64,000 nt of DNA from Oscillospiraceae bacterium (GCA_051886995.1 JBJEYS010000173.1:1508-65507); one strand, 5' to 3'; shown: positions 1-30,728, numbered from the stretch's first letter. The notes: generated by a model from the letters alone, not told the origin. Program-made: numbers and translations.

Positions 1-2758
1 GCATCTGCTGGGGGGAGCGGCAGGTGGAGATGTGGCCGGCCAGATCGGGGTACCGCTTTTCGCAGAACCGGACCCAGGCCGGGCAGCAGCTGGTGAACAG
101 GGGCAGATTCTCTCCCTTGGTCACCCGCTCCAAAAACTCATTGGCCTCCTCCACAATGGTCAGGTCGGCGGAGAACGTGGTATCGTACACGGCGTCAAAC
201 CCGGCCTTGCGCAGAGCAGCCGTCAGACGGCCGATGGCGTTTGAACCCTTGGGCAGACCAAAGGCGTCGCTGACGCCAACCCGCACGGAAGGAGCGATCT
301 GGGCCACCACCATGGTGTTGGGATCATCCAGCGCCGCGCCCACCACATCCAGATTCTTTTTCAGACGGATGCCGCCAGTGGGGCATACGGTGGTACACTG
401 TCCGCAGCCCACGCAGGAGCTCTCCGCCATGGCGGCGGCGCCGCGAGGCGATACAAAGGTGGCGCCGTCACGGGTCACCATCTCGATGGCGCTGACCGTC
501 TGGACCTTCTGACACATCTCCACACAGCTGCCGCACTGGATACACTTGTTGGGGTCCAGCACAATGCAGTTGGAGCTTTCGTCCATGGGGAGCCTGCGGT
601 AGTACTTGGAGCGGTAGTAGCGCTCCTCGATCTTGCAGTCCGGGTTCGGGGAGATGCGGCAGAGCAGCGCCCGCAGCTGATAGGAGCCAAAGCACAGGTT
701 GTAGGGCCCTTCGCCCGAAGTCAGTACGTTGACGTTGGACTCCTGCCAACCGTGCTCGGGGTCCTCCGCCTCGGGATACCACCAGCCCATCTCGCAGTTG
801 ACGATGCGCGGATCCATCCCGTCCAGGAACTTGGCCTTCTGGGTGATCTTTCCCCGGGGAGTCTCGATCCACACCCAATCGCCGTCCTTGATGCCGTACT
901 TCGCACCGGTTTCGGGATTCATGGTGACATTGGGGAAGGGCGCCCGGCTGCGTAGAGAGGCGATCTGACGGTTGTTGGAGATAAAGAACTGCTGCCGGCG
1001 GCTGCCGGTCGTCAGCCCCAGCGGGTACACCTGGGCGATATCTGGACGCAGGCGGTAGCTCTCCGCAGCGTCCTCCCAGAACGGCAGCGGGTCTCCGCCC
1101 TCCTCCTCAGTCAGCTGGGAATACAGCTCGAATTTTCCGCTGGGCGTATTGAAGCCCTTTTCCTTGTAGTTGTAATAGGTGCGCTTGGGCTCCAGGTAGC
1201 CGATCTTTTTGAATTGCTCAAAGGTCATGCCGGCCAGCTCCGGGCGGCGGCGGCCCATCTCGGCCAGCTGCCCGTTGTAGATTTCCTCCAGGCTGTCCGC
1301 GCCGTAATCCAGCCCCATGCGGCGGCTGAGCTCCAGGAACACTTCTTCGTCCGACCGGCACTCCCCCACCTGCACTACCTTCTGCATACAGAGGATGGCC
1401 TGTTCGCTGAACTCCGGCATGCAGAACACCTCGTCCAGTTCGGGCCAGAAGGCGGCGGGCAGGAAAATGTCCGCCAGCTCAGCGGTGGGAGTCATGAAGA
1501 AATCCATGCAGACCATGAAGTCCAGCTTTTCCAGACTTTCACGGACGTATTTGCTCTCAGGCATGGACAGAAGCGCGTTGTTGGCGTGGAACAGGGCGGC
1601 GCGCACACGGTAGGGATAACCGTCCCGCATGGCCTGCAGGACCGCGCGGGGATGAGCCATGGTGGCCTTTGTGGTATGGGGCAGGCCCGCGCTCAGACAC
1701 TTGGCCTTCATCTCATCGCTGAGCCGGTCCAGCAGGGTATCGGCCGTGGGTGCGATCTCCAGGCTGGGCACAAAGCCGCCGGGCACATCATAGTTGCCGG
1801 TAATGCCCATCAGGATGTACAGGGCACGGCAGGTCTGCAGGGAGTTGCGGGTCTGCTCGATGGCGCAGCCCCACTCCAGGCCCAGGGGCTTGACTGTGGC
1901 GATCACACGCCCCAGCTTGACTATATCTTCCTCCGGAACCCAGGTGATCTTGGAAACGCGCTTGACGTCATACTGCGCCACGCGGGCCTTCAGTTCCTCA
2001 AAGCCGTAGCACCAGTTGGCCACAAAGTCATGATCGTACAGTTCTTCCGAGATGATCACATTCAAAACGCCCAGGGCCAGTGCGCCGTCGGTGCCGGGGC
2101 GCAGGCGCACCCACATATCGGCATAGGGCGTCAGCTCGGTGGGCTTGGGGTCAACGATGATGATGGGCGTGCCCTCCTTCACCGCGTCCTTGATGAACCA
2201 CTGCAGTTCGCCGTCGGCGCCGCTGACGGCGGGGTTGCTGCCCCAGATCAGGATGCCGCCGGGCTTCACGTCGCCGTAGTAGTCCACGCTGGAGTAGGTG
2301 CCGGAGGTCCAGCGGCCGGCATGGACGCGGGGGTCCAGGCAGATCAGCGGGCCGGAGGAGACTCCGTTGGGCGTGCCCAGCACATGGGAAAAACGCCAGA
2401 AATGCGCCATATGGTGGCGACCGGTTCCCGTAAACATGGAGATACTTTCCGGCCCGTAGGTATCCCGGATGTCGGTCAGCCGGGAGGCAACGATGCTCAG
2501 GGCCTCTTCCCAGTTAATGCGTTCCCACTGGCCGGAACCACGGGGGCCGATCCGCTTCATGGGATAGGTGATCCGGTCGGGATGGTACATCTGCTCAATG
2601 ATCGAAACGCCCTTGGCGCATGCCCGTCCCTTGTTCAGGGGGGCGTCGGGGTCGGGTTCCACCCTGACTAGCTTTCCGTCCTCCACCGTCAGGATGTGGA
2701 CGCAGCCGCCATGGCAGCCCCGGCATGCCGCTCTGAATTGGTTCGGTCTCAGTTCCAT
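1..2758 (-). CDS. Molybdopterin (bis-MGD family) oxidoreductase fused in frame to a 2x[4Fe-4S] ferredoxin and an [FeFe]-hydrogenase H-domain. Partial: the C-terminus runs off the left edge.
   Basis: Minus-strand ATG at 2756-2758, preceded by GGAGGAAGG. N-terminus MELRPNQFRAACRGCHGGCVH...NKGRACAKG is the CX2CX3C..C FeS motif of Mo/W-bisMGD enzymes. A GDWVWIETPRGKITQKAKF-type Mo-dinucleotide-binding segment lies at about 830-890. I read the frame codon by codon across 74-415 and 512-1261 and found no stop. The ORF is missing from the track only because it is open at the edge. Distal part: CIQCGSCVEMC (512-544), CVGCGQCTTVCP (380-415), APSVRVGVSDAFG, FDAVYDTTFSADLTIVEE, PLFTSCCPAWVRF (74-97, hydrogenase L1 signature). 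Confidence 0.8.
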   Translation of the reverse strand, partial: MELRPNQFRAACRGCHGGCVHILTVEDGKLVRVEPDPDAPLNKGRACAKGVSIIEQMYHPDRITYPMKRIGPRGSGQWERINWEEALSIVASRLTDIRDTYGPESISMFTGTGRHHMAHFWRFSHVLGTPNGVSSGPLICLDPRVHAGRWTSGTYSSVDYYGDVKPGGILIWGSNPAVSGADGELQWFIKDAVKEGTPIIIVDPKPTELTPYADMWVRLRPGTDGALALGVLNVIISEELYDHDFVANWCYGFEELKARVAQYDVKRVSKITWVPEEDIVKLGRVIATVKPLGLEWGCAIEQTRNSLQTCRALYILMGITGNYDVPGGFVPSLEIAPTADTLLDRLSDEMKAKCLSAGLPHTTKATMAHPRAVLQAMRDGYPYRVRAALFHANNALLSMPESKYVRESLEKLDFMVCMDFFMTPTAELADIFLPAAFWPELDEVFCMPEFSEQAILCMQKVVQVGECRSDEEVFLELSRRMGLDYGADSLEEIYNGQLAEMGRRRPELAGMTFEQFKKIGYLEPKRTYYNYKEKGFNTPSGKFELYSQLTEEEGGDPLPFWEDAAESYRLRPDIAQVYPLGLTTGSRRQQFFISNNRQIASLRSRAPFPNVTMNPETGAKYGIKDGDWVWIETPRGKITQKAKFLDGMDPRIVNCEMGWWYPEAEDPEHGWQESNVNVLTSGEGPYNLCFGSYQLRALLCRISPNPDCKIEERYYRSKYYRRLPMDESSNCIVLDPNKCIQCGSCVEMCQKVQTVSAIEMVTRDGATFVSPRGAAAMAESSCVGCGQCTTVCPTGGIRLKKNLDVVGAALDDPNTMVVAQIAPSVRVGVSDAFGLPKGSNAIGRLTAALRKAGFDAVYDTTFSADLTIVEEANEFLERVTKGENLPLFTSCCPAWVRFCEKRYPDLAGHISTCRSPQQM

Positions 2759-2790
2759 AGCTTTCCTTCCTCCGAATTGCCATTAGGGTT

Positions 2791-2866: not shown

Positions 2867-4231
2867 TTATTCCTTGTAGAACGCGGTGGGCTTCTGCCCG
2901 GGTTCCTTATCGATGCGGTTGGAAGCGAAGAAGATCAGGATGGTGCCGATCAGGGAAGCCACGGCGAAGGCGGCATACGCGGCGCGGTAGCCTTCGGTCA
3001 GCTTCAGGCTGGTGGACAGGATCAGGGGGGCGGTCACTGTGAAGATCTGCATGATCACCGCGGAGCGGCCCCAGATGACGGGGTAGTCGCGGGGGCCGTA
3101 CAGGGACATGATGTGGGACATGACCATGTTGGCGTTGGAGCCGGTCATGAAGAAGAACAGGAACACAAAGATAAAGTTGGTGACGGTGTTGTAGGGCAGG
3201 AAGCCGCCGCACAGACCGGAGATGATATAGCCAATGCCCATCATCAGGCCGGCACGGCGGGTACCGATCTTCTGATCCAGCCAGCCGCCGAAGATGGAGC
3301 CGGGGACGGCGAACAGGGGCAGCAGCTTCATCCAGCGGGCGGCAGCTCCGGCCGCCATGCCTTTCGCAGCGTCAGGAGCGACGCCGCTGGCGATGAGCTC
3401 GGGCACACGCATGGACATCTGATAGGGAACCATCTGCTGCAGGAAGCCGGAGGAGACCATGAACAGAAGGCCGTAGCCAATCATAACAAGCCAGAAGTTC
3501 CGATCCTTCAGAACTTCCTTCATGGTCCACACGCGTGGGCCGCTCATGCGTGCCCGCAGGGCGGCGCGCTCCTCCTCGGTGCTGTCGCCGTTGTCGGGCT
3601 CAAAGCCGGCTTTGCGGGGATCAACAGGGAAGCAGAACCAGTTGATGATGCCCCAGACGATGGTGGCGATACCGAAGACCACCAGGGCCTTGCCGACGCC
3701 GCCCCAGGCGATCAGAGCGGTCAGGATGGACAGGGTGATCAGGTTGGCCAGGTTGTTGCCGATGGAGGCCCAGCCCAGGGCGGAACCCTTCTTGGTGGGG
3801 AACCAGTTGGTAATGATCATGGGCTCAGCGACCTGAGAGGCGTTGGCGGCCATGACGAAGACCAGGAACACCACGACGCAGTAGCCCACCGGGCTGTCCA
3901 CATAGCCGTAGAAGCAGCAGGCGATGCCGCCGACAATACAGACCAGGGTAAACATGATGCGGGTCTTGAACTTGCCGTACAGAGCGCCCAGGATAAAGCA
4001 GGGGATGATGCTGGCGTAGCCGATGTAGGAGTTCATGGCCAGGACCTGATATTTTTCCAGGCCCATCTGCGCGGCCTTAAGATCGGCCAGGGTATTCTGG
4101 GCCGTGCCATTCCACCAGCCGCCGCTGATGAACATCCAGGCGATCATCACGTAGATGATGCACCACCAGCCCTTGACGCCGTAGTTGAAGTTTGTCTTCT
4201 TGCGCAGGGTCGTAGCAGGTTGCTTTTCCAT
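2867..4231 (-). CDS. MFS transporter
   Basis: Track ORF 2867..4312. The preferred start is the internal ATG at 4231 (MEKQPATT...) behind GAAAGGAG. About 12 hydrophobic segments and a glycine-rich, MFS-like composition. Confidence 0.8.
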   Translation of the reverse strand: MEKQPATTLRKKTNFNYGVKGWWCIIYVMIAWMFISGGWWNGTAQNTLADLKAAQMGLEKYQVLAMNSYIGYASIIPCFILGALYGKFKTRIMFTLVCIVGGIACCFYGYVDSPVGYCVVVFLVFVMAANASQVAEPMIITNWFPTKKGSALGWASIGNNLANLITLSILTALIAWGGVGKALVVFGIATIVWGIINWFCFPVDPRKAGFEPDNGDSTEEERAALRARMSGPRVWTMKEVLKDRNFWLVMIGYGLLFMVSSGFLQQMVPYQMSMRVPELIASGVAPDAAKGMAAGAAARWMKLLPLFAVPGSIFGGWLDQKIGTRRAGLMMGIGYIISGLCGGFLPYNTVTNFIFVFLFFFMTGSNANMVMSHIMSLYGPRDYPVIWGRSAVIMQIFTVTAPLILSTSLKLTEGYRAAYAAFAVASLIGTILIFFASNRIDKEPGQKPTAFYKE

Positions 4232-4381: not shown

Positions 4382-5551
4382 TTACAGGGTGTTGGGATTG
4401 ACGGGGATACCGGGACGGCCGGGATACTTGGCCTCCACGGCGCGGACCTCGGGATCGTCCAGGCAGCACAGCCAGCCCTTGTCGTAGACCTTGACGCCGC
4501 CCACGGTCAGATCGGCGTTGCGGATATCGCCGGTGATATGCGGATAGTAGTAATAGTTGGGCAGTGCGCCGGCAGAGCCAATGTGGACGTGCAGGTTGCA
4601 GGTGTGGGAGTGGTCGATAATGCGGCGGAAGCGGTCGTTGGGGCACTGGTACTTCTCCACATGGGCGTTGGGATGGCTACCGAAGTGGAAGGTATCGAAC
4701 TTGTAGATGCCGTCTCCCACCTTGCTCTCCAGATCCTTCAGCAGGCGGCGCAGCTGGCCGGCCTCATAGCCGCCCTTGATGTCCACCATGCGGGAATTCT
4801 CCACGGTAATGCTGATGGGAGTGTCCCACTCGGGCTGGATGTCCATGTAGCGGGACCACCAGGACAGCATGCAGTTGAAGTTGAACACGCCGTTGACGTC
4901 CTTGCAGTTGATGGGCGGATGGCACCAGTCGGGGAAGGGCAGGTAGTGGCTGGCCTCGTGGCGCCAGGAATTGTACGCCATGCCGGGGATGCCCTCGCGC
5001 TTGGTGGGATCCAGGGTATAGCCCTCCAGGTGGGTTCCGTTGGGATCGGTCATGACGAACTTGGGGGGCGTGTCATGGTTCATGAAGGGCTTGGAGCTGA
5101 CGTGGCGGATCATGGTGACCAGCTCATAGGGGGTCTGGGCCCACTCGGTCATCAGCAGTTCCGCAGTGCAGGGGAACATGCGCACCATCCAGGTGCCGCA
5201 CTCCTCCAGGTGGTCACGGAACTCGGACATTTCCTCGGTGACCAGATCGGCGGACAGGTTGATCATGACGTCGGCGGCAGCCACCGCGGCCTTCACCACG
5301 GGGTTGTAGCGCCACTTGTGCAGGACATGGGGCTCGTCGATCCACATGATGGTGCTGTGGGCCCCGCGGGTGGAGACCACCGTGGAGATCCAGGAGACAG
5401 CCTCCTCGTCCACCAGGTTGTCGCCGCCGTAAAGTCCGTCCTTCTGGGCAAGGATCAGGACCTCCTGGCCGGGCTTGATGCGGGCGCAGTTGTCCGCCAT
5501 GTCCATCAGGGGGATCAGTGCCGCTTCCGGGATTCCGACTTGAATAGCCAT
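4382..5551 (-). CDS. M29 aminopeptidase-like / NicX (2,5-dihydroxypyridine dioxygenase)-like family protein; function unknown
   Basis: Track ORF 4382..5581; start moved to ATG 5551 (MAIQVG...) behind GGAGGAA. The N-terminus ...CARIKPGQEVLILA... and the C-terminal block ISITVENSRMVDIKGGYEAGQLRRLL...FHFGSHPN...PHITGDIRNADLTVGGVKV parallel the NicX/AmpS layout as I recall it. Confidence 0.5.
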   Translation of the reverse strand: MAIQVGIPEAALIPLMDMADNCARIKPGQEVLILAQKDGLYGGDNLVDEEAVSWISTVVSTRGAHSTIMWIDEPHVLHKWRYNPVVKAAVAAADVMINLSADLVTEEMSEFRDHLEECGTWMVRMFPCTAELLMTEWAQTPYELVTMIRHVSSKPFMNHDTPPKFVMTDPNGTHLEGYTLDPTKREGIPGMAYNSWRHEASHYLPFPDWCHPPINCKDVNGVFNFNCMLSWWSRYMDIQPEWDTPISITVENSRMVDIKGGYEAGQLRRLLKDLESKVGDGIYKFDTFHFGSHPNAHVEKYQCPNDRFRRIIDHSHTCNLHVHIGSAGALPNYYYYPHITGDIRNADLTVGGVKVYDKGWLCCLDDPEVRAVEAKYPGRPGIPVNPNTL

Positions 5552-5730: not shown

Positions 5731-7458
5731 TTAAGAGCGCCGCAGGGCCGCGGTTGCAGCCTCATCAACCTTGAGGGTGGTGGGATCGATGACGACCTTA
5801 TAGACTTCCTTGGCGAAGTCGATGGAAACCAGTTCGTTCAACACGTCGTACTCCACGGCCTTGGGGTCGCGCTTGGCGGGATCGCCCACGCCGGCGCCGC
5901 CGCCGGTGACGGAGACTTCCACATCACCCAGGTTGGTATAGAAATCCTTGGATTCAAAGGGATCGACGGTGCCGTCGGCGCGCTCGATATGGGCCACGTT
6001 CAGCGGGGCGTCCTGACCGCCCTGCAGGCCCTTGGCCTGGGTCTTGAAGCCGTCCCAGGAGCCGGTCTGGTGGAAACAGCGGCCGGCATGGTTCTCGATG
6101 GCCCAGACGATGCCGGGGGCGCCGCGCCACTGTCCGGCGCCGTGCTTGTCGGTGACGAACTCATAGGCTTTGTACTCCCAGGGGAAGCGCTGCATCTCGT
6201 CCTCCACGTTGGTCTTGCCGATGTTGCCCAAAGTGGAACCGGCGGCGCAGCTCTGGTAGCCGTCCAGACCGTAGGTGGCACCGGCGCCTGCGGAAGCACT
6301 GAAGGAGACGAACACGCCGGGTTTGCCCATGGTGATGATGTTGGACGTGACCTGACGGCTGTAGGGGGCGATGGCCTTTTCGGGCAGGACCTGGCTGAGC
6401 AGGTTCTGGATGACCTCGTTGACAAGGCCGCCGGTCAGGGCCACGCCCGCGGCGATCTTGGCGGTGCGGCTGGCATCCACCAGAGTGCCGGGCTTGGTCT
6501 TCATGTGGATGGGACGGCAGCTGCCCTCGTTGTGATACGTCAGCAGATCCCTGCCGAAGAACAGGAAGGAGTTGCAGCAGCAGTCGGAGTAGGTCATGTA
6601 GTCGTGGATGTTCAGCATACCGTCGGTCTCGGGATCGGTGTCCGAGAAGTCGAAATACAGGTCGGAGCCCTTGACGGTCAGGCTGGCGCGGACGGTGATG
6701 GGCTTGGACAGGTCCTTGCCGTCGCTGTCGGCGGAGGCCTCGGCGTACCAGGTGCCGTCGGGCCAGCTCTCGATCTGCTTGCGCACGGCGCTTTCGGCGC
6801 GGTTCATCATCTCGTGGGTGCAGGCAACGACGGTGTCGCGGCCGTACTTCTCGCACAGCTCGCCCAGACGCTTGTCGCCGATGGCCAGACTGCCGATGCA
6901 GGCGGAGCTTTCACGGCGCATCAGGTCGGGCTGGCGGTTGTTGGCCATGATCATGTCGAACACTTCATCGTTCCACATGCCGGCCTTGACGATGCGGCTC
7001 AGAGGGATGTTGAAGCCCTCGGAGATGTTGTCGAAGGACATGAAGTTGGAGCCGGGCTGCGCGCCGCCGTTGTCGGCCACGTGAACGCCCATGACCGCGA
7101 AGAAGGTCAGCTTGCCCTCACAGAAGACGGGACGGATGTACACCCAGTCGGGCAGGTGCGCGGCGCCGTCGTCGGGGGTGTTGGCCAGGAACACATCGCC
7201 GGGATGGATGTCGTCGCCGAACTTCTCCTTGATGTGCTGTACACCCAGCTTCGGGCTGAGCAGACGGTGGGGGATGCCTTCGGGAACAGCCAGGGCGTTT
7301 CCATCGGCGTCATAGATGGTGTAAGCAAGGTCGTGCAGGGTGACGATCAGAACGTTGGTGGCGGTACGCTCGACGGTCTCACGCATCTCGCGGCAGACGC
7401 GCCAGAAGTAGCTCCAGACAGTCGTGATCGTGACAGAATCCAAAGGTTTGCTGCTCAT
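5731..7458 (-). CDS. Hydantoinase B/oxoprolinase family protein (HyuB-like)
   Basis: Track ORF 5731..7473 starts at a TTG. ATG 7458 (MSSKPLDSVTITTVWSYF...) behind GGGAGGG is preferred. Length and sequence are typical of HyuB/OplaH B subunits. It begins 2 nt after the hyuA-like stop. Confidence 0.85.
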   Translation of the reverse strand: MSSKPLDSVTITTVWSYFWRVCREMRETVERTATNVLIVTLHDLAYTIYDADGNALAVPEGIPHRLLSPKLGVQHIKEKFGDDIHPGDVFLANTPDDGAAHLPDWVYIRPVFCEGKLTFFAVMGVHVADNGGAQPGSNFMSFDNISEGFNIPLSRIVKAGMWNDEVFDMIMANNRQPDLMRRESSACIGSLAIGDKRLGELCEKYGRDTVVACTHEMMNRAESAVRKQIESWPDGTWYAEASADSDGKDLSKPITVRASLTVKGSDLYFDFSDTDPETDGMLNIHDYMTYSDCCCNSFLFFGRDLLTYHNEGSCRPIHMKTKPGTLVDASRTAKIAAGVALTGGLVNEVIQNLLSQVLPEKAIAPYSRQVTSNIITMGKPGVFVSFSASAGAGATYGLDGYQSCAAGSTLGNIGKTNVEDEMQRFPWEYKAYEFVTDKHGAGQWRGAPGIVWAIENHAGRCFHQTGSWDGFKTQAKGLQGGQDAPLNVAHIERADGTVDPFESKDFYTNLGDVEVSVTGGGAGVGDPAKRDPKAVEYDVLNELVSIDFAKEVYKVVIDPTTLKVDEAATAALRRS

Positions 7459-7460
7459 GC

Positions 7461-9524
7461 TCAACCCTCCCAATAAACGATAAAGTTGCCGTACTCGTCC
7501 ACCTTCACAGTGTTGTGGGCGGGGATGACGGATGTTGCGGTCTTCTGCTCGATGACGCAGGGACCCTTGACCTCGTTGCCGGCCAAAAGCTTGTCACCGT
7601 CGTAGATGGGCAGGTCGGCGGACTTGCCGTTGACGAAGGTCTCGCGCGTGGCGATCCGGGCGGCGGAGGCGTCGGCGGTGCCCGCTTTGATCTTGTTGAC
7701 CTTGAAGGGGCTGCCGGGCATCCGGGCGGTCATCCGGATGTTGGTCAGCTGGATGGGTACCCAGGGCAGATCAAAGGTGAAGGTATCCTTGTGCAGCTGG
7801 TGGAAGCCGGCGACCATCTGATCCAGGACTTCCTGCGTGACGTCCAGACTGGAGATCTTCAGCTCCAACTCGTGGTACTGGTTGGCGTAGTGCACGTCGG
7901 CGGTCAGCTCGAAGATCAGGTCGGCCTCGGTGACGTTGAAGTACGCGAAGTCCTTCACGGCGGTGGCCTTCATATCATCGACCAGAGCGCGGATCTCCTC
8001 CGGCTTGGCCTGATCGAAGTTGCGCAGGTAGGGGCGGACATAGTCGCGGCCGATGTCCAGATAGAACATGCTCTTGGCGCAGAAGGCGGAGGCATTCTTG
8101 GGGATCACGCAGCGGGGCATGCCCAGGATGTTGGACACGGCAACGCCGCACAGGGGGCCGCCGCCGCCCACCGCCAGCAGGGAGAAGTCGCGCACGTCGT
8201 AGCCCTTGCGGGTGGAGATGACGCTGATGCCGTCGGCCATGTTGTGGTTGACGGTGGTGTAGATCATCTGCGCGGCCTCCTCGACGGTGACGCCCAGAGG
8301 ATCGGCCACCTTCTTGATGGCCTGACGGGCCAGCTCCTTGGAGAGCTTCAGCTTGCCGCCGTTGAAGTTGTCGGGGTTGATGTAGCCCAGGGTCAGGGCC
8401 GCGTCGGTCACGGTGGGCTCGGTGCCGCCGCGCTGATAGCAGGCGGGGCCGGGCTCGGAGGAGGCGGACTGGGGACCCACGGACAGCAGGCCCATGGGGT
8501 TGATCCAGGCGATGGAGCCGCCGCCGGCGCCGATGGACAGAACTTCCGCCATCTTGATGCCGCACAGATCCTCCTCCAGCCAGGTGTTGGTGGCCAGAGA
8601 GACCTCGCCGTTGGAGACCATGGAGGCGTCCCAGGTGGTGCCGCCCATGTCGCCGATCAGGAAGTTCTTCTCGTTGATCTGCTCACCCAGGCGGACCGCG
8701 CCGACGGGACCGGCGGAGGGGCCGGAGTTGTTCAGATAGACGGGCTTGTCAATGATGGCAGGGATGGACTGCAGGTACTGGTTGCACTGGACGATCAGCA
8801 GCTGGCCCTTGAACTCCAGCTTCTTCAGTTCGTTCTCCAGATCGGTCAGGTACTTCTTGACGATGGGGCCCAGGCAGGCGCTGATGACGCAGGTGGAAAA
8901 ACGCTTGTACTCGCCCATCTGGGGCAGCTCCTTGGTGGAGCTGGTCACATACAGCTCGGGGGCCTTCTGCTTGATATAGTCCACGACCTTGCATTCGTTG
9001 GCGTCGTTCAGATAGGAGTTGATGAAGCAGACGGCCACCGACTCGCAGCCCTCCGCCTTGATTTTCGCCAGAACGGCGTCCAGCTCCGCGGGATCCACTT
9101 CCACGGAAACCTCGCCGTTGGGGCGGGTGCACTCCTTCACGCCGTAGCGCAGGTAGCGGGGAATGAAGGGCTCGTAGGGCGGGATGTAGCCGTCAAAGAG
9201 GGAGTGGGTCTCGATCTTCTGGCACTGGCGCATCTCGATGATGTCACGAAAGCCCTCGGTGGTGATCATGGCGGTCTTGGCCATCTTCCGCTCGACCACG
9301 GCGTTGGTGGCCACGGTGGTGCCGTGGATGATCCAGTCGGTCTCGGCCAGGAACTCCTTCAGGCTCTTGCCGAAGTACTCCGCGCCGTAGGTGATGGCGT
9401 TCAGCACGCCCTCATGGAAACGGCCGGGGGTCGTTGGTGCCTTGAACTCGTAAACGTTGTTTTCTCCATCCTGTACCATGCAGTCGGTAAACGTACCGCC
9501 GGTATCGACACATACTTTAAACAC
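7461..9524 (-). CDS. Hydantoinase/oxoprolinase family protein (HyuA-like, ATP-binding subunit)
   Basis: 687 aa. GTG start at 9524, 6 nt after GGAGG. The N-terminus MFKVCVDTGGTFTDCMV is the canonical HyuA DxGGTFTD motif. Confidence 0.9.
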   Translation of the reverse strand: MFKVCVDTGGTFTDCMVQDGENNVYEFKAPTTPGRFHEGVLNAITYGAEYFGKSLKEFLAETDWIIHGTTVATNAVVERKMAKTAMITTEGFRDIIEMRQCQKIETHSLFDGYIPPYEPFIPRYLRYGVKECTRPNGEVSVEVDPAELDAVLAKIKAEGCESVAVCFINSYLNDANECKVVDYIKQKAPELYVTSSTKELPQMGEYKRFSTCVISACLGPIVKKYLTDLENELKKLEFKGQLLIVQCNQYLQSIPAIIDKPVYLNNSGPSAGPVGAVRLGEQINEKNFLIGDMGGTTWDASMVSNGEVSLATNTWLEEDLCGIKMAEVLSIGAGGGSIAWINPMGLLSVGPQSASSEPGPACYQRGGTEPTVTDAALTLGYINPDNFNGGKLKLSKELARQAIKKVADPLGVTVEEAAQMIYTTVNHNMADGISVISTRKGYDVRDFSLLAVGGGGPLCGVAVSNILGMPRCVIPKNASAFCAKSMFYLDIGRDYVRPYLRNFDQAKPEEIRALVDDMKATAVKDFAYFNVTEADLIFELTADVHYANQYHELELKISSLDVTQEVLDQMVAGFHQLHKDTFTFDLPWVPIQLTNIRMTARMPGSPFKVNKIKAGTADASAARIATRETFVNGKSADLPIYDGDKLLAGNEVKGPCVIEQKTATSVIPAHNTVKVDEYGNFIVYWEG

Positions 9525-9591
9525 GATGTTCCTCCTTCAAGCAGGCTTTTCTGCTGTAGATTTAACAGAATATCCGGGATGTTGTGCACCC

Positions 9592-9620
9592 AATATAGCA
9601 CATCTGACCAAAAACATTTG
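9592..9620 (-). promoter_or_regulatory. Candidate extended -10 promoter of the hyuA operon
   Basis: The minus strand reads TGCTATATT (-10 at 9592-9597 with a TG extension at 9599-9600). The -35 position (9615-9620) has no good hexamer and is overlapped by palindrome 1. Confidence 0.45.
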
Positions 9621-9636
9621 TCGCGCATACGACAAA
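9617..9636. promoter_or_regulatory. Operator-like palindrome 1: TTTGTCG-N6-CGACAAA
   Basis: Perfect 7-bp arms TTTGTCG cgcata CGACAAA, overlapping the -35 position of the predicted promoter. Confidence 0.55.
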
Positions 9637-9673
9637 TACGAACTAAAACGCTTTTTCCCTCCTTTTATTTTGA

Positions 9674-9693
9674 TTTGTCGTCCGCGCGACAAA
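9674..9693. promoter_or_regulatory. Operator-like palindrome 2: TTTGTCG-N6-CGACAAA
   Basis: Perfect 7-bp arms TTTGTCG tccgcg CGACAAA, 57 bp (centre to centre) upstream of palindrome 1. Confidence 0.55.
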
Positions 9694-9737
9694 ACAAAAT
9701 CAAGATTGCCCAAGACCTTTCATTGCGTACGAAAATA

Positions 9738-9801
9738 GTTATCCCAACTTAAATCGTCAAACAGTGTGAATAAGCAGTTCGGCGAAAAAAGTTGGGATAA
9801 C
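9738..9801. repeat. 13-bp perfect inverted repeat with a 38-nt spacer, downstream of lipoprotein gene A
   Basis: GTTATCCCAACTT (9738-9750) / AAGTTGGGATAAC (9789-9801) in an AT-rich stretch. On the minus strand a T-run follows each arm. Confidence 0.5.
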
Positions 9802-9878
9802 ATTCTTTCACTTCAATCCATAAAGACGAGCAATTAAAATGTGAAATGCAGAAAAGAATTCTGAGTTTGGACAGCAGA

Positions 9879-11135
9879 TTATCCCCGGGTGCCTTCACCC
9901 TGGGCGCCCACAAAACCAATGGGCTTCTCGCCGCCCTCGCCCAGAGCCTCGGACAGGGCGTAGATGGCCGCGTCGAACTCCTGGACCGCGGTGCTGTTCT
10001 TATTGCAGGCAGCCCTGGCCTCGGCGATGGCCGCGTCAAAGGCGTCCAGATCGGCCTGGGCGACCCACATGCTCCCCTTGGCCACGTCGGAGCCGTCCAC
10101 GCTGACGGCCACGCCGTCTTTCGCGGCTTCCGCGTGCTCAATCGCCAGAGTCAGAGCTTCCTTGGCGGCGGCCTTGTCGCCATAAGTAAAGCCGATGGGA
10201 TGGCCGGTGGGCGTGCACCAGGTCACGACGGACAGATCGGTCAGACCCAGGCGGACATAAGCGGTGTAGAACTGGGTGGGCCGGTTGCAGTTGATCAGAT
10301 TGTACCGGGACACGTTGGACTCGATGTGCACATACTCGCCGCTCTGGCCGGCGTTGATGACGAAGTTCTTATTTTCATCCTTGGTCAGAGTGCCCTCCAT
10401 GGGAACGGCCTTCTCGATGACCCAGCCCTCGGGGCCGTAGTAGTACACCGCGAAATCGCCGATCTGGATGTTCTGGTCAAACTTTGAGGAGTGGAACACG
10501 ATGTTTTCCACATCCGGCCGGACGCGGTTGGTCTCCAGCTCGAAGTTGCCGCGCTTGACGGTGGTGGACTCATTGTACACGATGATGTCCGCCACACGGA
10601 CCACGTCATAGGACTGGGAGTCGATCTTGTTCACCAGGCCGGTGGCGCTGTCGCCGTACAGGGTGGTCACATGGCCGCGCACGGTGGTGATGGTCTCATA
10701 GAAGCCCAGGCGGGCATCCTCGAAGGACAGGTTGTCGGCGCTGGTGGTCTTGTGGACGTTGAAGCCCCAGCCCGCGTCGGTCTTGTACAGGCTGGACACG
10801 CCGTTGACCTGGTAGTCCCTGGTCTCGTCCTCGGCGGCAGGCACCTTGATGCCGTTCACATAGACTTTGCCTTCGGCCAGCAGAGCCTTTACACCCTCCA
10901 GGGCGTTGCCGTCGAAGTACTCGTTGTAGGCTTCGCCGGTGATCTTGGTGGCGTCGCCGTCGTGGACGATCTCCAGCAGAACGTCCTCCGCTGCGGGATC
11001 GCCCTTGGCGGTATTGGTCCCGACGTCGGACACGGTGTCCGGAGAGGGGGCGGTCTGGCCGCTGTCCTTCTCGCCGCAGGCGGCAAGAGCGAATACCATG
11101 GTAAGCGCGAGCATGAGCGCGAGGATCTTTTTCAT
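9879..11135 (-). CDS. Secreted lipoprotein, unknown family (paralog A)
   Basis: 418 aa. Signal peptide with lipobox MKKILALMLALTMVFALAAC. Shares long identical peptide blocks with the next gene. The C-terminal helical segment is FIVAR-like (DLDAFDAAIAEARAA). Confidence 0.85.
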   Translation of the reverse strand: MKKILALMLALTMVFALAACGEKDSGQTAPSPDTVSDVGTNTAKGDPAAEDVLLEIVHDGDATKITGEAYNEYFDGNALEGVKALLAEGKVYVNGIKVPAAEDETRDYQVNGVSSLYKTDAGWGFNVHKTTSADNLSFEDARLGFYETITTVRGHVTTLYGDSATGLVNKIDSQSYDVVRVADIIVYNESTTVKRGNFELETNRVRPDVENIVFHSSKFDQNIQIGDFAVYYYGPEGWVIEKAVPMEGTLTKDENKNFVINAGQSGEYVHIESNVSRYNLINCNRPTQFYTAYVRLGLTDLSVVTWCTPTGHPIGFTYGDKAAAKEALTLAIEHAEAAKDGVAVSVDGSDVAKGSMWVAQADLDAFDAAIAEARAACNKNSTAVQEFDAAIYALSEALGEGGEKPIGFVGAQGEGTRG

Positions 11136-11237: not shown

Positions 11238-12512
11238 TCAGCCCTGGGTTCCTTCACCCTGAGCGCCGACAAAGCCGGTGGGCTTCTCGCCGCCCTCGCC
11301 CAGAGCCTGGGACAGTTTGTACATGGCCATGTCGTACTCGTACAGGGCGGTGCTGTTCTTGTTGCAGACCGCGGTCGCCTCCGCGATGGCGGCATCATAG
11401 GCGTCCATATCTTCTTGGGTGACCCACATGGTGCCCTTGGCAACGTCGGAGCCGTCCACGCTGACCGCTACACCTTCCTTGGCGGCCTCGGCGTTCTCGA
11501 TGGCCAGGCTCAGAGTGGCCTTGGACTGTTCCTTATCGCCCAGGCTGAAGCCGATGGGGTAGCCGTTGGGGGTGCACCAGGTCACGACCTCCTGCTCAGT
11601 CAGGCCCAGGCGGATATAAGCGTTGTAGAACTGGGTGGGCCGGTTGCAGTCGATCAGGTTGTAGCGGGAGACGTTGGACTCGATGTGGACGTACTCGTCG
11701 CTCTTCCCCTTGTTGACGACAAAGTTCTTGTTCTCATCCTTGTACAGGGTGCCGACCACGGGAACAGCCTTCATCATGACCCAGCCGTCGGGGCCGTAGT
11801 AGTAAACGACCACGTCGCCGATCTTGATGTCGCTATCAAAGTTCTCGGACTTCACAGCGGTGATGGTCTCCACGTCGGGGCGGACGCGGTTGGTCTCCAG
11901 CTCGAACTCGCCGCGCTCGATCTTATCGACCTGGCCGCCGTGATCCTCAAAGTAAGCGATGCGGAACACGTCGAAGGACTGGGAGTCGATCTTGTTCACC
12001 AGGCCGGTCTTGCTGTCGCCATAAAGGGTGGTCACATGGCCGCGCACGGTGGTGATGGTCTCAAAGAAGCCCAGGCGGGCTTCCTCAAAGGACAGGTTGT
12101 CGGCGCTGGTGGTCTTATGGACATTGAAGCCCCAGCCGCTGCTGGTCTTGTACAGGCTGGACACGCCGTTGACTTGGTAATCCGCGGTCTCGTCCTCGGC
12201 GGCGGGCACCTTGATGCCGTTCACGTAGACTTTTCCCTCGGCCAGCAGAGCTTTCACGCCCTCCAGGGCGTCGCCGCCGAAGTACTGGTTGTAGGCTTCA
12301 CCGGTGATCTTGGTGGCTTCGCCGTCATGTTCGATCTCCAGCAGCACATCTTCCGCCGTGGGATCTCCCTTCGCGGTGTCGGTCCCGGTATCGGTTCCGG
12401 CGTCGGACACGGTGTCCGGGGAGGGATCGACCTGGCCATTGTCTTTCTCGCCGCAGGCGACAAGAGCGAATGCCATGATCAGTGCAAGAGCGAGTGCAAG
12501 GATCTTTTTCAT
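11238..12512 (-). CDS. Secreted lipoprotein, unknown family (paralog B)
   Basis: Track ORF 11238..12629; start moved to ATG 12512 (MKKILALALALIMAFALVAC lipobox) behind GAAGGGAAG. Blocks shared with paralog A include GVKALLAEGKVYVNGIKVPAAEDET, GWGFNVHKTTSADNLSFE, TITTVRGHVTTLYGDS and EYVHIESNVSRYNLI. Confidence 0.85.
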   Translation of the reverse strand: MKKILALALALIMAFALVACGEKDNGQVDPSPDTVSDAGTDTGTDTAKGDPTAEDVLLEIEHDGEATKITGEAYNQYFGGDALEGVKALLAEGKVYVNGIKVPAAEDETADYQVNGVSSLYKTSSGWGFNVHKTTSADNLSFEEARLGFFETITTVRGHVTTLYGDSKTGLVNKIDSQSFDVFRIAYFEDHGGQVDKIERGEFELETNRVRPDVETITAVKSENFDSDIKIGDVVVYYYGPDGWVMMKAVPVVGTLYKDENKNFVVNKGKSDEYVHIESNVSRYNLIDCNRPTQFYNAYIRLGLTEQEVVTWCTPNGYPIGFSLGDKEQSKATLSLAIENAEAAKEGVAVSVDGSDVAKGTMWVTQEDMDAYDAAIAEATAVCNKNSTALYEYDMAMYKLSQALGEGGEKPTGFVGAQGEGTQG

Positions 12513-12696
12513 TGTGATCTTCCCTTCTAAAATTTCGACAGTCAGACCTTGGCAAATCGCCAAAGTCATTCTGAATGCCGTCCCGCAAAATAGATAGCCA
12601 CACAATGCCATGCCATGGAAAAGTGGCAAAGAAAAAAATCAAGCAATAAATATGGTGCTTCCTTTGGGCGGAAGGTGTACTCCAGTTTCCTTCCGG

Positions 12697-12778: not shown

Positions 12779-14254
12779 TCACTTGGCAGGAATAGTCAGA
12801 ACCTGACCGATATAGATGGTGTAGGGAGCCTTGATGCCGTTGGCCTCGGCGATTCTGCCGAACTGGGTGCCGGAACCGTAGACCCGGGCCGCGATCTTCC
12901 ACAGGCAGTCACCGGCGACAACGGTGTATGTCTCAGCGGGAGCGGGTTCAGGCTCGGGCTCAGGAGCGGGCTCGGGATCGGGCTCTTTTTCCGCGAACAG
13001 GGCGTCAAAGCCGGGATAGGCGTTCATGCGCTCCCAGCCGAACTCGGCATTGGTGAAGAAGCCGGAGAACGCGGCGCCGATGTCCTTGCCGGTGCCGGCC
13101 TGGGCCAGGTACAGGTAGTAGACATAGAAGTCAAGTTCGCTGTTGTAGCTGTCCTCGTCCGCCAGAGTTTCCTCGGCCAGCTTGATGGCCTCCTCCAGGG
13201 CGGCGTAGGCGAACTTCTGCTCGGCGGTGGCCGCGTCAGTCAGGGTGACGGAAGCCAACTTGGCCTTGGACTGGGCAATGGCGTCGGCCAGGAAGACCTT
13301 GGCGTTCTCATTGGAGGTAATACCGATGGGGGACATGGAGTAGGGGTCCATCCACATGCTGACCTTGATGCCCTTTTCATTGTTCTTGAAGCCGAAGTAG
13401 GTGTGTGCGTTGGCAAACTCGCCATTGCGCTGGGCAACGATCAGGTTATCGCGGGAGTACTTCATGGTGTCGGTGTACTTGACGTCGTCGATCTGATAGA
13501 AATCATGGTCAACACCGTCCACCAGGATACCATTGGCCTCGACCGCCTTCTTCACGATCCAGCCGTCGGGAGTCAGATAGAAGACAGCGCCGTCGCCCTC
13601 TTTGAGGGAGGTATCAAAATTTTCGGGCTTGATGACCTCACCCAGAATGCCGCCGAAGTTTTCGGCGTCATACAGGCGGCCGGCGTGGGTGGGAACCCGC
13701 TCCAGATCGCCGCGGTACAGGATGTAGTTGCCATCGGCGTCCCGGGAGATGCCGTTGACGATCAGGCCCTCGGTGTACCACAGCTTGACGATGTCGGCCT
13801 TTTCGTCGCCGTTGGTGTCATACAGGTCGATGTGCAGGCCGCCGGGCAGCTCGTCATTGACCAGCGCCTTGATGGCGTCAGCGTACTCGGTGAATTCCTT
13901 CTTGCCGTCCACCAGGAACTTGCCGTCCTTGGCCGTCAAAGCGGTGGCGCCGCTGTTGACGACAAAGCCTGCCTCGCCCAGCGCCGCCAGTTCTTCGGCG
14001 TTCGCAGGGACCTGGAAATCGTTGATGTAGAAATTACCCGCCTCGACAACGCCGAACACGCCCTTCTCGTCGAAGTACTGGGGATAGTCGTAGATGCCGA
14101 CCGCGTTGCCCATGCCGCCGCCGCCCACACGCTGGGTGTCGATCTCAGCCATGGGGGCGGTATCCTCAGCCGTGGTGTCAGCTGCCACCGCAACGGGGAC
14201 TGCGGCGATCGTCAGGAGCAGTGCCAGTGTCAGGGAAAACAGTCTCTTTTTCAT
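12779..14254 (-). CDS. Secreted protein with a C-terminal LysM domain; distant paralog of the two lipoproteins
   Basis: Track ORF 12779..14317; start moved to ATG 14254 (MKKRLFSLTLALLLTIAAVPVAVA signal peptide) 9 nt after GGAG. PEPEPAPEPEPEP linker, then TYTVVAGDCLWKIAARVYG...IYIGQVLTIP, which is LysM. The core block FYLTPDGWIVKKAV resembles YYYGPEGWVIEKAV of paralog A. Confidence 0.8.
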   Translation of the reverse strand: MKKRLFSLTLALLLTIAAVPVAVAADTTAEDTAPMAEIDTQRVGGGGMGNAVGIYDYPQYFDEKGVFGVVEAGNFYINDFQVPANAEELAALGEAGFVVNSGATALTAKDGKFLVDGKKEFTEYADAIKALVNDELPGGLHIDLYDTNGDEKADIVKLWYTEGLIVNGISRDADGNYILYRGDLERVPTHAGRLYDAENFGGILGEVIKPENFDTSLKEGDGAVFYLTPDGWIVKKAVEANGILVDGVDHDFYQIDDVKYTDTMKYSRDNLIVAQRNGEFANAHTYFGFKNNEKGIKVSMWMDPYSMSPIGITSNENAKVFLADAIAQSKAKLASVTLTDAATAEQKFAYAALEEAIKLAEETLADEDSYNSELDFYVYYLYLAQAGTGKDIGAAFSGFFTNAEFGWERMNAYPGFDALFAEKEPDPEPAPEPEPEPAPAETYTVVAGDCLWKIAARVYGSGTQFGRIAEANGIKAPYTIYIGQVLTIPAK

Positions 14255-14427
14255 TTGAGCCATCTCCTTTTCGTAATATTCGTCAAAATTGCCGCATGAT
14301 TTTGCAGTCAGCAGCACGAATATGACAAGATGATGATAGCAGGATTAGAAATCCGATTAAACGCATTTCTGTGGCAAAGTTGTGTTATTTTTGTGTAAGA
14401 CTTACCAATCGTGAAAGCTCCTGTCCC

Positions 14428-27686: not shown

Positions 27687-27733
27687 TTTCCTGTGAAGCA
27701 ACGCATCGTCAGTATGCAGTAACATGATGACCG

Positions 27734-27765
27734 ACCCCCTCCGGCGGTACCGTCGGAGGGGGTTT
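27734..27765 (+). terminator. Stem-loop after the SBP gene (partial terminator or mRNA stabiliser)
   Basis: ACCCCCTCCGGCG-gtac-CGTCGGAGGGGGT, a 13-bp stem with a short T-run. A hairpin after the SBP gene is common in ABC importer operons. Confidence 0.4.
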
Positions 27766-27900
27766 GGCGAATATCTGTGCTGCTCCCAACACGGTGTCTG
27801 CGTTGAACGGACATTTTCCCCGCGTGTGTATGCAAAGCAGATACGTTCGGGCAAATCAAGAATCATCCACCTCAGACCATGTACGTTGAGGAGTCTCGCT

Positions 27901-28842: not shown

Positions 28843-28844
28843 GA

Positions 28845-29744: not shown

Positions 29745-29754
29745 GGTGTATGAG

Positions 29755-30726: not shown

Positions 30727-30728
30727 CC

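Follow-up and report, generated by a model that had tools for sequence, protein, structure and literature searches.

A molybdenum/tungsten enzyme of the acetylene-hydratase / catechol-dehydroxylase clade joined in frame to a complete-looking [FeFe]-hydrogenase in an Oscillospiraceae bacterium

The wiring of a hydrogenase to a molybdenum or tungsten enzyme of the MopB type is known from hydrogen-dependent CO2 reductase (HDCR) and from formate hydrogenlyase. In HDCR of Acetobacterium woodii / Thermoanaerobacter kivui (FdhF-HycB3-HycB4-HydA2, PDB 7qv7), a soluble cytoplasmic system, the H-cluster of an [FeFe]-hydrogenase is connected through [4Fe-4S] clusters to a MopB Mo/W centre, so that H2 directly reduces the MopB substrate without an external carrier. 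Soluble catechol dehydroxylases of Gordonibacter (Dodh, Cldh and related enzymes; PMC7028382, PMC11887054) are Tat-less MopB catalytic subunits related to acetylene hydratase, which pair with a small 4Fe-4S protein and are encoded beside MFS transporters (PMC7028382). Acetylene hydratase of Pelobacter acetylenicus (PDB 2e7z) is cytoplasmic and features an FS0 cluster and a cysteine as metal ligand. In group-A [FeFe]-hydrogenases of the CpI type (M3) and the bifurcating HydA1 type (PDB 1feh/4xdc, 8a6t), a two-cluster ferredoxin domain (FS4A/FS4B), the H-domain and a small-subunit-like tail are collinear. Here, we describe a gene in which both halves are joined in a single reading frame, an architecture for which our literature searches found no characterised enzyme.

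The gene is located at the left edge of the analysed window, a stretch of 64,000 nucleotides from Oscillospiraceae bacterium (GCA_051886995.1 JBJEYS010000173.1:1508-65507). Translation of positions 1-2758 on the minus strand yielded 919 codons without a stop, starting from ATG 2758 and running off the window edge. The start codon is preceded by a GGAGGA Shine-Dalgarno sequence at 2768-2773 (minus strand), 9 nt upstream. The window covers residues 1-919 of about 1,160, while the C-terminal ~243 aa (L2, L3 and the small-subunit-like tail) lie beyond the left edge. The initial annotation had claimed a fusion of a molybdopterin oxidoreductase with an [FeFe]-hydrogenase catalytic domain, and this was confirmed, since profile searches recovered both a MopB enzyme and an [FeFe]-hydrogenase domain in one frame, with neither a stop nor a frameshift.

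The N-terminal [4Fe-4S] (FS0) domain of the MopB module (2582-2734, minus strand; Pfam PF04879 Molybdop_Fe4S4, residues 9-59) features the motif CRGCHGGC...C47, which starts at residue 12 and is not preceded by a Tat signal or RR leader. It is followed by the Molybdopterin (bis-PGD binding) catalytic domains (1322-2575, minus strand; PF00384, residues 62-479, E 5e-36), including the conserved TGRH motif at residues 112-115, and by the dinucleotide-binding domain IV (716-1015, minus strand; PF01568 Molydop_binding, residues 582-681), which includes the segment at 830-890 pointed out in the initial annotation. A conserved linker (566-715, minus strand; ...LCRI...CKIEERYY...) joins MopB to the two-[4Fe-4S] ferredoxin domain (368-565, minus strand; Pfam Fer4/Fer4_7, residues 732-797), which is equivalent to FS4A/FS4B of CpI. 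Cys700, Ile710 and Glu711 of the linker are invariant across 66 fusions, and all eight cysteines of the ferredoxin domain are invariant. The two CX2CX2CX3C motifs at residues 739-749 and 782-792 correspond to nt 512-544 and 383-415, essentially where the initial annotation had also placed them. The N-terminal part of the H-domain (2-313, minus strand; PF02906 Fe_hyd_lg_C, residues 816-919, E 2e-39) matches profile positions 2-104 of 245 and is cut by the window edge. The strings GPLICLDPRVHAG, APSVRVGVSDAFG, PLFTSCCPAWV and SPQQM, from which the initial annotation had recognised the start of the H-domain, are all present.

Comparison with other assemblies indicates that the fusion is a conserved design. 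In total, 68 independent full-length relatives of about 1,145-1,173 aa (50-94% identical) from NCBI, ENA, JGI and Logan have the same order of domains, and an exhaustive profile search of 1.84 billion cluster representatives found the fusion as one coherent family, represented by the protein P0049. The closest full-length orthologue, P0001, is 94% identical and 1162 aa in length. Its AF2 model has a pLDDT of 90.6 and a pTM of 0.88 over 1,162 residues, with mean block pLDDT values of 80-94 for the linker, in line with a single folded unit. In this model, the MopB half matches acetylene hydratase (TMt 0.85) and the H half matches HydA1/CpI (TMt 0.71).

The hydrogenase half appears to be catalytically complete. 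Motif L1, TSCCPAW, is located at residues 889-895 (nt 74-94) of the window ORF, and L1 is present in 68 of 68 homologues. L2 and L3 lie outside the window and were observed in the orthologues only, with MPCTAKKDE and EVMACPGGCIMGGGQP in P0001. L2 is present in 68 of 68 homologues and strict L3 in 65 of 68, while the other three differ only by a Q-to-E change after GGG and keep the cysteines. Of the proton-relay residues, which correspond to E279, E282, R286, C299 and S319 of CpI and all lie within the window, E871, E874, C891 and S911 are invariant in 66 of 66 sequences and R878 is conserved in at least 90%. P0001 scored 440.4 bits against the NCBIfam group-A [FeFe]-hydrogenase model TIGR02512, which is above the cutoff of 405.95, whereas the truncated window copy scored 244 bits.

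The initial annotation had found no (U/C)-H dipeptide in the segment aligned to the metal ligand and had concluded that the protein does not look like a formate dehydrogenase and that its substrate is unassigned. This was correct, but the segment does contain a cysteine that had not been identified as the ligand. Cys140 (codon 2339-2341, minus strand), within the motif C-L-x-P-R, aligns with the tungsten ligand Cys141 of acetylene hydratase and with the ligand cysteine of HDCR FdhF. It is invariant in 120 of 120 relatives examined and is followed by Leu141 in 119 of 120, instead of the Sec/Cys-His dipeptide of formate dehydrogenases. In line with this, the score against the Fdh-alpha model TIGR01591 was 314 bits, well below the cutoff of 666. 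Cys12, Cys15, Cys19, Cys47, His16, Lys49, TGRH and Pro143-Arg144 are invariant as well. His16 occupies the position of the catalytic Asp13 of acetylene hydratase, adjacent to the second FS0 cysteine, indicating that the protein is not a true acetylene hydratase either.

The N-terminal 345 aa scored 229-240 bits against Gordonibacter Dodh/Cldh-type dehydroxylases (sequences from the supplement of PMC11887054), 192 bits against acetylene hydratase and 145 bits against a Dadh-type enzyme. The motifs C-H-x-G-C, GTGR, C-x-x-P-R and GNxDxPGG are shared with the Gordonibacter enzymes and are lacking in acetylene hydratase. However, the identity to characterised dehydroxylases is only about 38% (37-38.5% over about 330 aa), was obtained only for the N-terminal ~345 residues because the published sequences are truncated in the supplement, and the Gordonibacter enzymes lack the first FS0 cysteine, whereas this family keeps all four (PMC11574389). 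Related MopBs (36-37% identical) carry an N-terminal GltD-like NAD(P)H module instead, and close relatives carry only the ferredoxin domain or nothing, which suggests a modular electron input.

Immediately upstream of the fusion, on the same strand, an MFS transporter is encoded (2867-4231, minus strand; Pfam MFS_1; 454 aa from the Met that matches orthologues), with 454-aa orthologues in the homologous loci L001 and L003 and a 462-aa one in L002. A perfect 16-bp hairpin (2790-2825) lies between the MFS stop codon and the fusion start. On the minus strand it has no T-run, so it may be a processing, attenuation or stability element. Further genes on the minus strand encode a conserved 389-aa protein (4382-5551), a hydantoinase B / caprolactamase-beta-like subunit (5731-7473; PF02538, E 7e-111; NCBIfam CapB 230 bits, below cutoff; PDB 6yra_B) and a hydantoinase A / caprolactamase-alpha-like, ATP-dependent subunit (7461-9524; Pfam Hydant_A_N, Hydantoinase_A and Hydant_A_C; NCBIfam CapA 545 bits, below cutoff). 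The 389-aa protein gave no Pfam, NCBIfam or PDB sequence hit and has many invariant His residues. Its AF2 model (pLDDT 93, pTM 0.91) has a predicted NicX / M29-aminopeptidase fold, with a Foldseek match to 2,5-dihydroxypyridine dioxygenase (7cn3, E 7e-18, TMt 0.70). A sigma-70-like promoter match upstream of hyuA (9732-9760, minus strand; 9 of 12 consensus positions) is weak evidence for a possible start of a hyuA-hyuB-389aa-MFS-(hairpin)-fusion transcript.

Neighbouring genes repeatedly point to the catabolism of hydroxylated aromatic compounds. The MFS, hydantoinase A/B and NicX-fold cassette is found in the window and in L001-L003, and L002 features AthL/AthS-like pyrogallol-transhydroxylase genes directly upstream as well as Amidohydro_2 and MarR genes elsewhere in the locus. 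The NicX-fold family recurs with AthL-like, Amidohydro_2, MarR and TRAP genes in an unrelated genome (L094). Locus L090 has two OYE/enoate-reductase genes plus an MFS (an MFS gene was noted for L090/91), while L093 has TRAP, cyclase, W-AOR and XDH-family genes. The window itself contains a PhlG/phloretin-hydrolase-like ORF at 31754-32629. However, the hydantoinase cassette is limited to the subclade that is at least ~68% identical. More distant members are monocistronic with only a LysR, MerR or AraC regulator nearby, so context says little about the family as a whole. No hydE/F/G or Moco-biosynthesis genes were seen among the window ORFs scanned, which did not include every ORF, and no HydE/HydF/HydG maturases were found in the flanks of homologues, in the absence of a whole genome.

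Taken together, based on the architecture, the conservation of every cofactor-binding residue, the clade assignment and the gene neighbourhoods, we consider it somewhat more likely than not that the gene encodes a cytoplasmic single-polypeptide H2:substrate oxidoreductase of about 1,160 aa. In the proposed mechanism, H2 is split at the H-cluster and the protons leave by the E871/E874/R878/C891/S911 relay. The two electrons are inferred to hop through FS4A, FS4B and FS0 to the Cys140-ligated centre, whose metal, Mo or W, is itself inferred, and this centre would perform a two-electron reduction of an imported organic substrate. The most likely reaction is the reductive removal of a hydroxyl or oxo group from a hydroxylated aromatic or N-heteroaromatic compound (R-OH + H2 -> R-H + H2O), which would make the compound accessible to the neighbouring catabolic genes. 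The substrate class and the direction of flow (H2 uptake) are likewise inferred. There are no biochemical data for any member, [FeFe]-hydrogenases are bidirectional, so that sequence cannot fix the direction, and a soluble H2:substrate reductase conserves no energy by itself. Physiologically, such a route is plausible, since H2 stimulates Mo-dependent dehydroxylation in gut Actinobacteria by an unresolved route (bioRxiv 10.64898/2026.04.18.719167).

More tentatively, the family would be the first known enzyme class in which a single polypeptide uses H2 directly, through its own H-cluster, to drive a Mo/W-dependent reductive dehydroxylation or deoxygenation of hydroxylated aromatic compounds, with pyrogallol, gallate-derived trihydroxybenzenes, catechols and hydroxypyridines among the candidate substrates. 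Such an enzyme would give Oscillospiraceae of gut, rumen and termite ecosystems a carrier-free link between the H2 pool and polyphenol turnover. If the mechanism holds, it would answer the question how H2 feeds Mo-dependent dehydroxylases, extend that chemistry from Actinomycetota to abundant Clostridia and offer a compact, self-sufficient scaffold for H2-driven biocatalysis.

An unlikely but surviving alternative is the same wiring with the opposite direction, in which the Mo/W site oxidises or hydroxylates a low-potential substrate and the electrons are released as H2. This would be a one-protein analogue of formate hydrogenlyase, suited to fermenters that lack a respiratory chain. The H-domain is of the prototypical bidirectional group-A type, closest to H2-evolving or bifurcating HydA1 and CpI, the hosts are fermentative Clostridia according to their Oscillospiraceae names, and MopB relatives such as AthL-type and resorcinol hydroxylases act on aromatic rings without being reductases, with AthL-like genes as neighbours in L002. 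However, probably few Mo-hydroxylase couples are negative enough to reduce protons at gut H2 pressures, the formate dehydrogenase signature is absent and the nearest characterised relatives by motif are reductases.

Two further readings are less likely still and about equally so. In the first, the Mo/W module catalyses a redox-neutral reaction, such as hydration or transhydroxylation, and the fused hydrogenase only keeps the metal centre in its active reduced state as a built-in H2-driven reductive activator. Acetylene hydratase is the best solved-structure match by both sequence and fold and appears to need a strong reductant although its reaction is not a redox reaction, and pyrogallol transhydroxylase-like genes are adjacent in L002. 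On the other hand, the catalytic Asp13 is replaced, a full catalytic H-domain with an intact proton relay and a two-cluster wire is costly for occasional activation, and the relatives fused to GltD-like modules suggest stoichiometric electron flow. In the second, which is not exclusive of the main explanation, the protein is an electron hub whose surface-exposed ferredoxin domain exchanges electrons with soluble ferredoxin, so that reduced ferredoxin from fermentation is discharged either as H2 or onto the organic acceptor, with the H-cluster and the Mo/W site as alternative sinks. Close relatives consisting of MopB plus ferredoxin domain without a hydrogenase (proteins P0014, P0015, P0074 and P0087) and bare MopBs interleaved with fusions in the MopB tree imply that the MopB can be served by external donors. 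However, no ferredoxin gene is conserved next to the fusion, and the N-terminal FS2 and FS4C modules, probably the contact for external ferredoxin in CpI-type enzymes, are exactly the ones that were replaced. An artefact of assembly, a missed stop codon or frameshift, or a chimeric contig is refuted for practical purposes, although the window shows only one copy cut by its edge, by the shared junction in 68 full-length proteins, the conserved linker residues, the uniform lengths and the confident single-chain model.

Compared to HDCR, whose FdhF is the second-best PDB sequence match to the MopB half (E 3e-61), the protein is one polypeptide instead of four separate subunits that form filaments, its H-domain is closer to HydA1/CpI than to HydA2, no HycB genes are adjacent and the substrate is not CO2/formate. 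The Gordonibacter-type dehydroxylases share with it the Tat-less MopB, the Fe-S partner and the adjacent MFS transporter, but their Fe-S partner is a separate protein, no hydrogenase is attached and they occur in Actinomycetota, whereas this family occurs mainly in Oscillospiraceae. Acetylene hydratase is of the same size as the MopB half and its best solved-structure match by sequence (E 1.4e-99, about 37% identity), but has the ligand motif C-I-G-N instead of C-L-x-P-R and is not fused to a ferredoxin domain and a hydrogenase. With respect to CpI-type and HydA1 hydrogenases, the initial annotation had claimed that the usual N-terminal FeS modules are replaced by the Mo-enzyme. As its own motif list implied, only the [2Fe-2S] and His-ligated [4Fe-4S] modules are replaced, by a ~730-aa MopB enzyme, while the two-cluster ferredoxin domain is kept, and no HydB/HydC (NuoF/NuoE-like) genes are adjacent. 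NuoG / FdsA-type proteins, with HydA-like N-terminal Fe-S domains fused to a MopB fold, appear to show that hydrogenase-type Fe-S modules and MopB domains have been combined in one chain before. Those proteins carry the Fe-S modules of the hydrogenase but not its H-domain, whereas here the arrangement is the converse, with the H-domain kept and the MopB at the N-terminus. Both halves are well known, but a covalent fusion of a complete H-domain to a non-formate-dehydrogenase MopB of the dehydroxylase / acetylene-hydratase clade has, as far as we could find, not been described or studied.

Translation of positions 1-2758 on the minus strand from the ATG at 2758 yielded 919 codons without a stop, and the frame leaves the window at its left edge. 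The start codon is preceded by GGAGGA at 2768-2773. Pfam domains in this frame are Molybdop_Fe4S4 (residues 9-59), Molybdopterin (residues 62-479), Molydop_binding (residues 582-681), two Fer4 motifs (residues 732-797) and Fe_hyd_lg_C (residues 816-919). The last of these matches profile positions 2-104 of 245 and is thus cut by the window edge. The initial annotation had described an in-frame fusion of a molybdopterin oxidoreductase with an [FeFe]-hydrogenase catalytic domain. Its positions for the ferredoxin motifs and the dinucleotide-binding segment, as well as the peptide strings it reported, are all correct, and the observation is confirmed.

A search of 5.8 billion proteins returned 68 full-length proteins of 1,112-1,173 aa with the same domain order, originating from NCBI, ENA, JGI and Logan assemblies. 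Their identity to the window protein ranges from 94% (protein P0001) down to about 50% (protein P0101). Each of them features L1 TSCCP[AG]W and L2 MPCxxKKxE, while a strict L3 is present in 65 and the other three differ only by Q to E after GGG. The proton-relay residues equivalent to CpI E279, E282, C299 and S319 are invariant and the R286 equivalent is at least 90% conserved; all of these relay residues lie inside the window. Full-length P0001 passes the NCBIfam model for group-A [FeFe]-hydrogenases with 440.4 bits, compared to a cutoff of 405.95. No HydEFG or Moco genes were found among the window ORFs tested. An AlphaFold2 model of P0001 built on 66 family sequences is confident as one unit (pLDDT 90.6, pTM 0.88). 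Foldseek matched its N-terminal half to acetylene hydratase (TMt 0.85) and its C-terminal half to HydA1/CpI (TMt 0.71), whereas no PDB chain covers both halves. Mis-assembly or a hidden frameshift is therefore excluded for practical purposes.

An exhaustive HMMER search of 1.84 billion 50%-identity cluster representatives with the full-length profile found only one representative covering the whole profile (P0049), indicating that the fusion is a single, fairly tight family. In the same search, the giant predicted protein P0173 (4122 aa) scored like a fusion, but it has seven Fe_hyd_lg_C + Fe_hyd_SSU repeats, three flavodoxin domains and an FAD-binding domain and no MopB. It could be a eukaryote-like poly-hydrogenase or a gene-calling concatenation. 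Source names of the fusion proteins, where given, say Oscillospiraceae. GTDB representatives with the full junction include genomes binned as a Synergistaceae MAG (locus L010) and a Lachnospiraceae MAG (locus L011), although this is no measure of the true taxonomic spread.

The Mo/W module lacks a Tat leader, since the FS0 motif starts at residue 12. The four FS0 cysteines, Lys49, a TGRH motif, Cys140 and Pro143-Arg144 are invariant in the fusions and in their non-fused relatives. Cys140 aligns with the tungsten ligand Cys141 of acetylene hydratase and with the ligand Cys of HDCR FdhF. The segment that the initial annotation had aligned to the Mo ligand, and in which it had noted the absence of a (U/C)-H dipeptide, therefore does contain the ligand. 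Membership in the formate dehydrogenases or HDCR was rejected, as the ligand is Cys-Leu, not Sec/Cys-His, and the Fdh-alpha score of 314 bits falls below the cutoff of 666 bits. Acetylene hydratase is the best solved relative (E 1.4e-99, about 37% identity); however, its catalytic Asp13 is an invariant His in this family, so that a true acetylene hydratase was rejected as well. No other NCBIfam MopB equivalog (PhsA, DmsA, NasC, TorA, ArrA, TtrA, EbdA) reaches its cutoff, and a survey of motifs in distant MopB representatives was uninformative.

N-terminal sequences of Gordonibacter dehydroxylases (PMC11887054) were compared with the first 345 residues of the window protein. Gordonibacter Dodh and two Cldh-type paralogues yielded 229-240 bits and 37-38.5% identity, compared to 192 bits and 36.9% for acetylene hydratase and 145 bits and 38.3% (over 248 aa) for a Dadh-type enzyme. 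The window protein shares the motifs C-H-x-G-C, GTGR, C-x-x-P-R at the ligand and GNxDxPGG with the Gordonibacter enzymes, but not with acetylene hydratase. The Gordonibacter type was described as Tat-less, paired with a small 4Fe-4S protein and encoded next to MFS transporters (Maini Rekdal et al., PMC7028382). The same parts list is found here, with the Fe-S protein fused. One difference is that the Gordonibacter proteins lack the first FS0 cysteine (PMC11574389).

In a neighbour-joining tree of the MopB modules, fusions are interleaved with two other forms. One is a bare protein of ~720 aa, which is up to 72% identical to the MopB of the window, and the other is a MopB of ~800 aa with the ferredoxin domain but no hydrogenase. 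Protein P0015 is a genuine gene of the second kind, with no hydrogenase gene next to it. In more distant relatives of the same MopB superclade (36-37% identical; P0236 with 1216 aa and P0247 with 1179 aa), the N-terminal FS0 domain is replaced by a GltD-like Fer4_20 + Pyr_redox_2 NAD(P)H module, which is another uncharacterised fused electron-input design. This MopB clade therefore repeatedly acquires different electron-input modules, which fits a stoichiometric redox role.

In the window, the fusion gene is the last of a same-strand run that comprises hydantoinase A (7461-9524), hydantoinase B (5731-7473), a 389-aa unknown protein (4382-5551, minus strand), an MFS transporter (2867-4231), a 16-bp hairpin (2790-2825) and the fusion gene itself. 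The hairpin is a perfect inverted repeat (TCAGGCTGCCGGAAAA…TTTTCCGGCAGCCTGA) located between the MFS stop codon and the fusion start. Its T-run is on the plus strand only, although both flanking genes are on the minus strand, and it may be an attenuator or an mRNA-stability element. The same cassette accompanies the gene in three other loci (L001, L002 and L003), but in different orders and orientations, which argues for functional linkage; a Crp/Fnr-type regulator is also present. The hydantoinase pair is closest to caprolactamase/hydantoinase enzymes, but scores below their cutoffs.

The 389-aa protein belongs to a widespread 'hypothetical' family of about 385 aa (family alignment A3) with many invariant His residues and without a Pfam, NCBIfam or PDB sequence hit. 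It models confidently (pLDDT 93) with the fold of 2,5-dihydroxypyridine dioxygenase NicX and M29 aminopeptidases (E 7e-18). Its family recurs in an unrelated genome (locus L094, 8001-9155) beside TRAP transporter, Amidohydro_2, MarR, lactonase, IclR and AthL-like MopB genes. Found in anaerobes next to hydantoinase-like or AthL-like, Amidohydro_2 and TRAP genes, it may be an oxygen-independent ring-opening or hydrolytic metalloenzyme.

Other loci add further hints. In L002, a pyrogallol-transhydroxylase-type pair (6319-9894), consisting of an AthL-like (917 aa) and an AthS-like (Fer4_11 + CarboxypepD_reg) gene, lies directly upstream of, and on the same strand as, the 91%-identical fusion gene, while Amidohydro_2 and MarR genes lie beyond the hydantoinase cassette in the same locus. 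The window has no equivalent of this pair within its bounds, which do not extend downstream of the fusion gene. Loci L090/91 feature a divergent MFS gene and two OYE/enoate-reductase genes. The most divergent fusion (P0101) sits in locus L093 (396-17482) in a cluster with a TRAP transporter, a cyclase (PF04199), a tungsten aldehyde:ferredoxin oxidoreductase with its radical-SAM partner and a three-subunit xanthine-dehydrogenase-family Mo enzyme plus XdhC, which places three different Mo/W enzymes in one locus. L003 and a further locus, L005, share MerR, 3HCDH and CitMHS genes, and L005 also has a cyclase gene. More distant members are monocistronic, with a LysR, MerR or AraC regulator nearby or only housekeeping genes. 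The window also holds an ORF with a DAPG-hydrolase (PhlG) domain, the family that includes phloretin hydrolase (31754-32629, plus strand). It is followed by an esterase-like ORF (32663-33529) and preceded by an Opp-type ABC transporter (26076-31679), suggesting that the organism processes phloroglucinol-type polyphenols. Taken together, these neighbourhoods point to the catabolism of hydroxylated aromatic or N-heteroaromatic compounds, although this evidence is circumstantial. Elsewhere in the window, two tandem paralogous lipoprotein-like genes of unknown function (9879-11135 and 11238-12629, both minus strand) have near-identical N-termini (MKKILAL…ACGEKD) and no Pfam hit, and are followed by a related secreted protein ending in a LysM domain (12779-14317, minus strand). 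An mnmE (trmE) homologue, which in many bacteria lies close to the replication origin, is located near the right end (60644-62011, plus strand).

The best-supported reading is a cytoplasmic H2:substrate oxidoreductase in one chain. In this inferred scheme, H2 is oxidised at the H-cluster and electrons pass through FS4A, FS4B and FS0 to the Cys140-ligated centre, presumably Mo or W, which carries out a two-electron reduction of an imported organic compound. Given the clade, the most likely reaction is a reductive dehydroxylation; the substrate and the direction of electron flow are likewise inferred. Three alternatives are regarded as less likely, namely the reverse direction, with substrate oxidation and H2 release as in formate hydrogenlyase, a redox-neutral Mo/W reaction in which the hydrogenase acts as a reductive activator, and a ferredoxin-linked hub with two alternative sinks. 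A recent preprint shows that H2 stimulates Mo-dependent dehydroxylation in Gordonibacter and states that the route of electron delivery is unknown (bioRxiv 10.64898/2026.04.18.719167). A covalent fusion would be the simplest possible route.

Databases name these proteins automatically as '[FeFe] hydrogenase, group A' or 'molybdopterin-dependent oxidoreductase'. Full-text literature searches and papers on dehydroxylases and gut hydrogenases yielded no description of the fusion, but since most subscription journals were not covered, a prior description cannot be excluded. The family is of interest because it is conserved, can be tested with one gene and bears on H2 and polyphenol metabolism in gut ecosystems. 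By descent, its halves belong to known groups, the group-A [FeFe]-hydrogenases and the acetylene-hydratase/catechol-dehydroxylase clade of MopB. Functionally, the closest system is HDCR, in which an H-cluster is wired by [4Fe-4S] clusters to a MopB; HDCR, however, has four subunits and a formate dehydrogenase active site.
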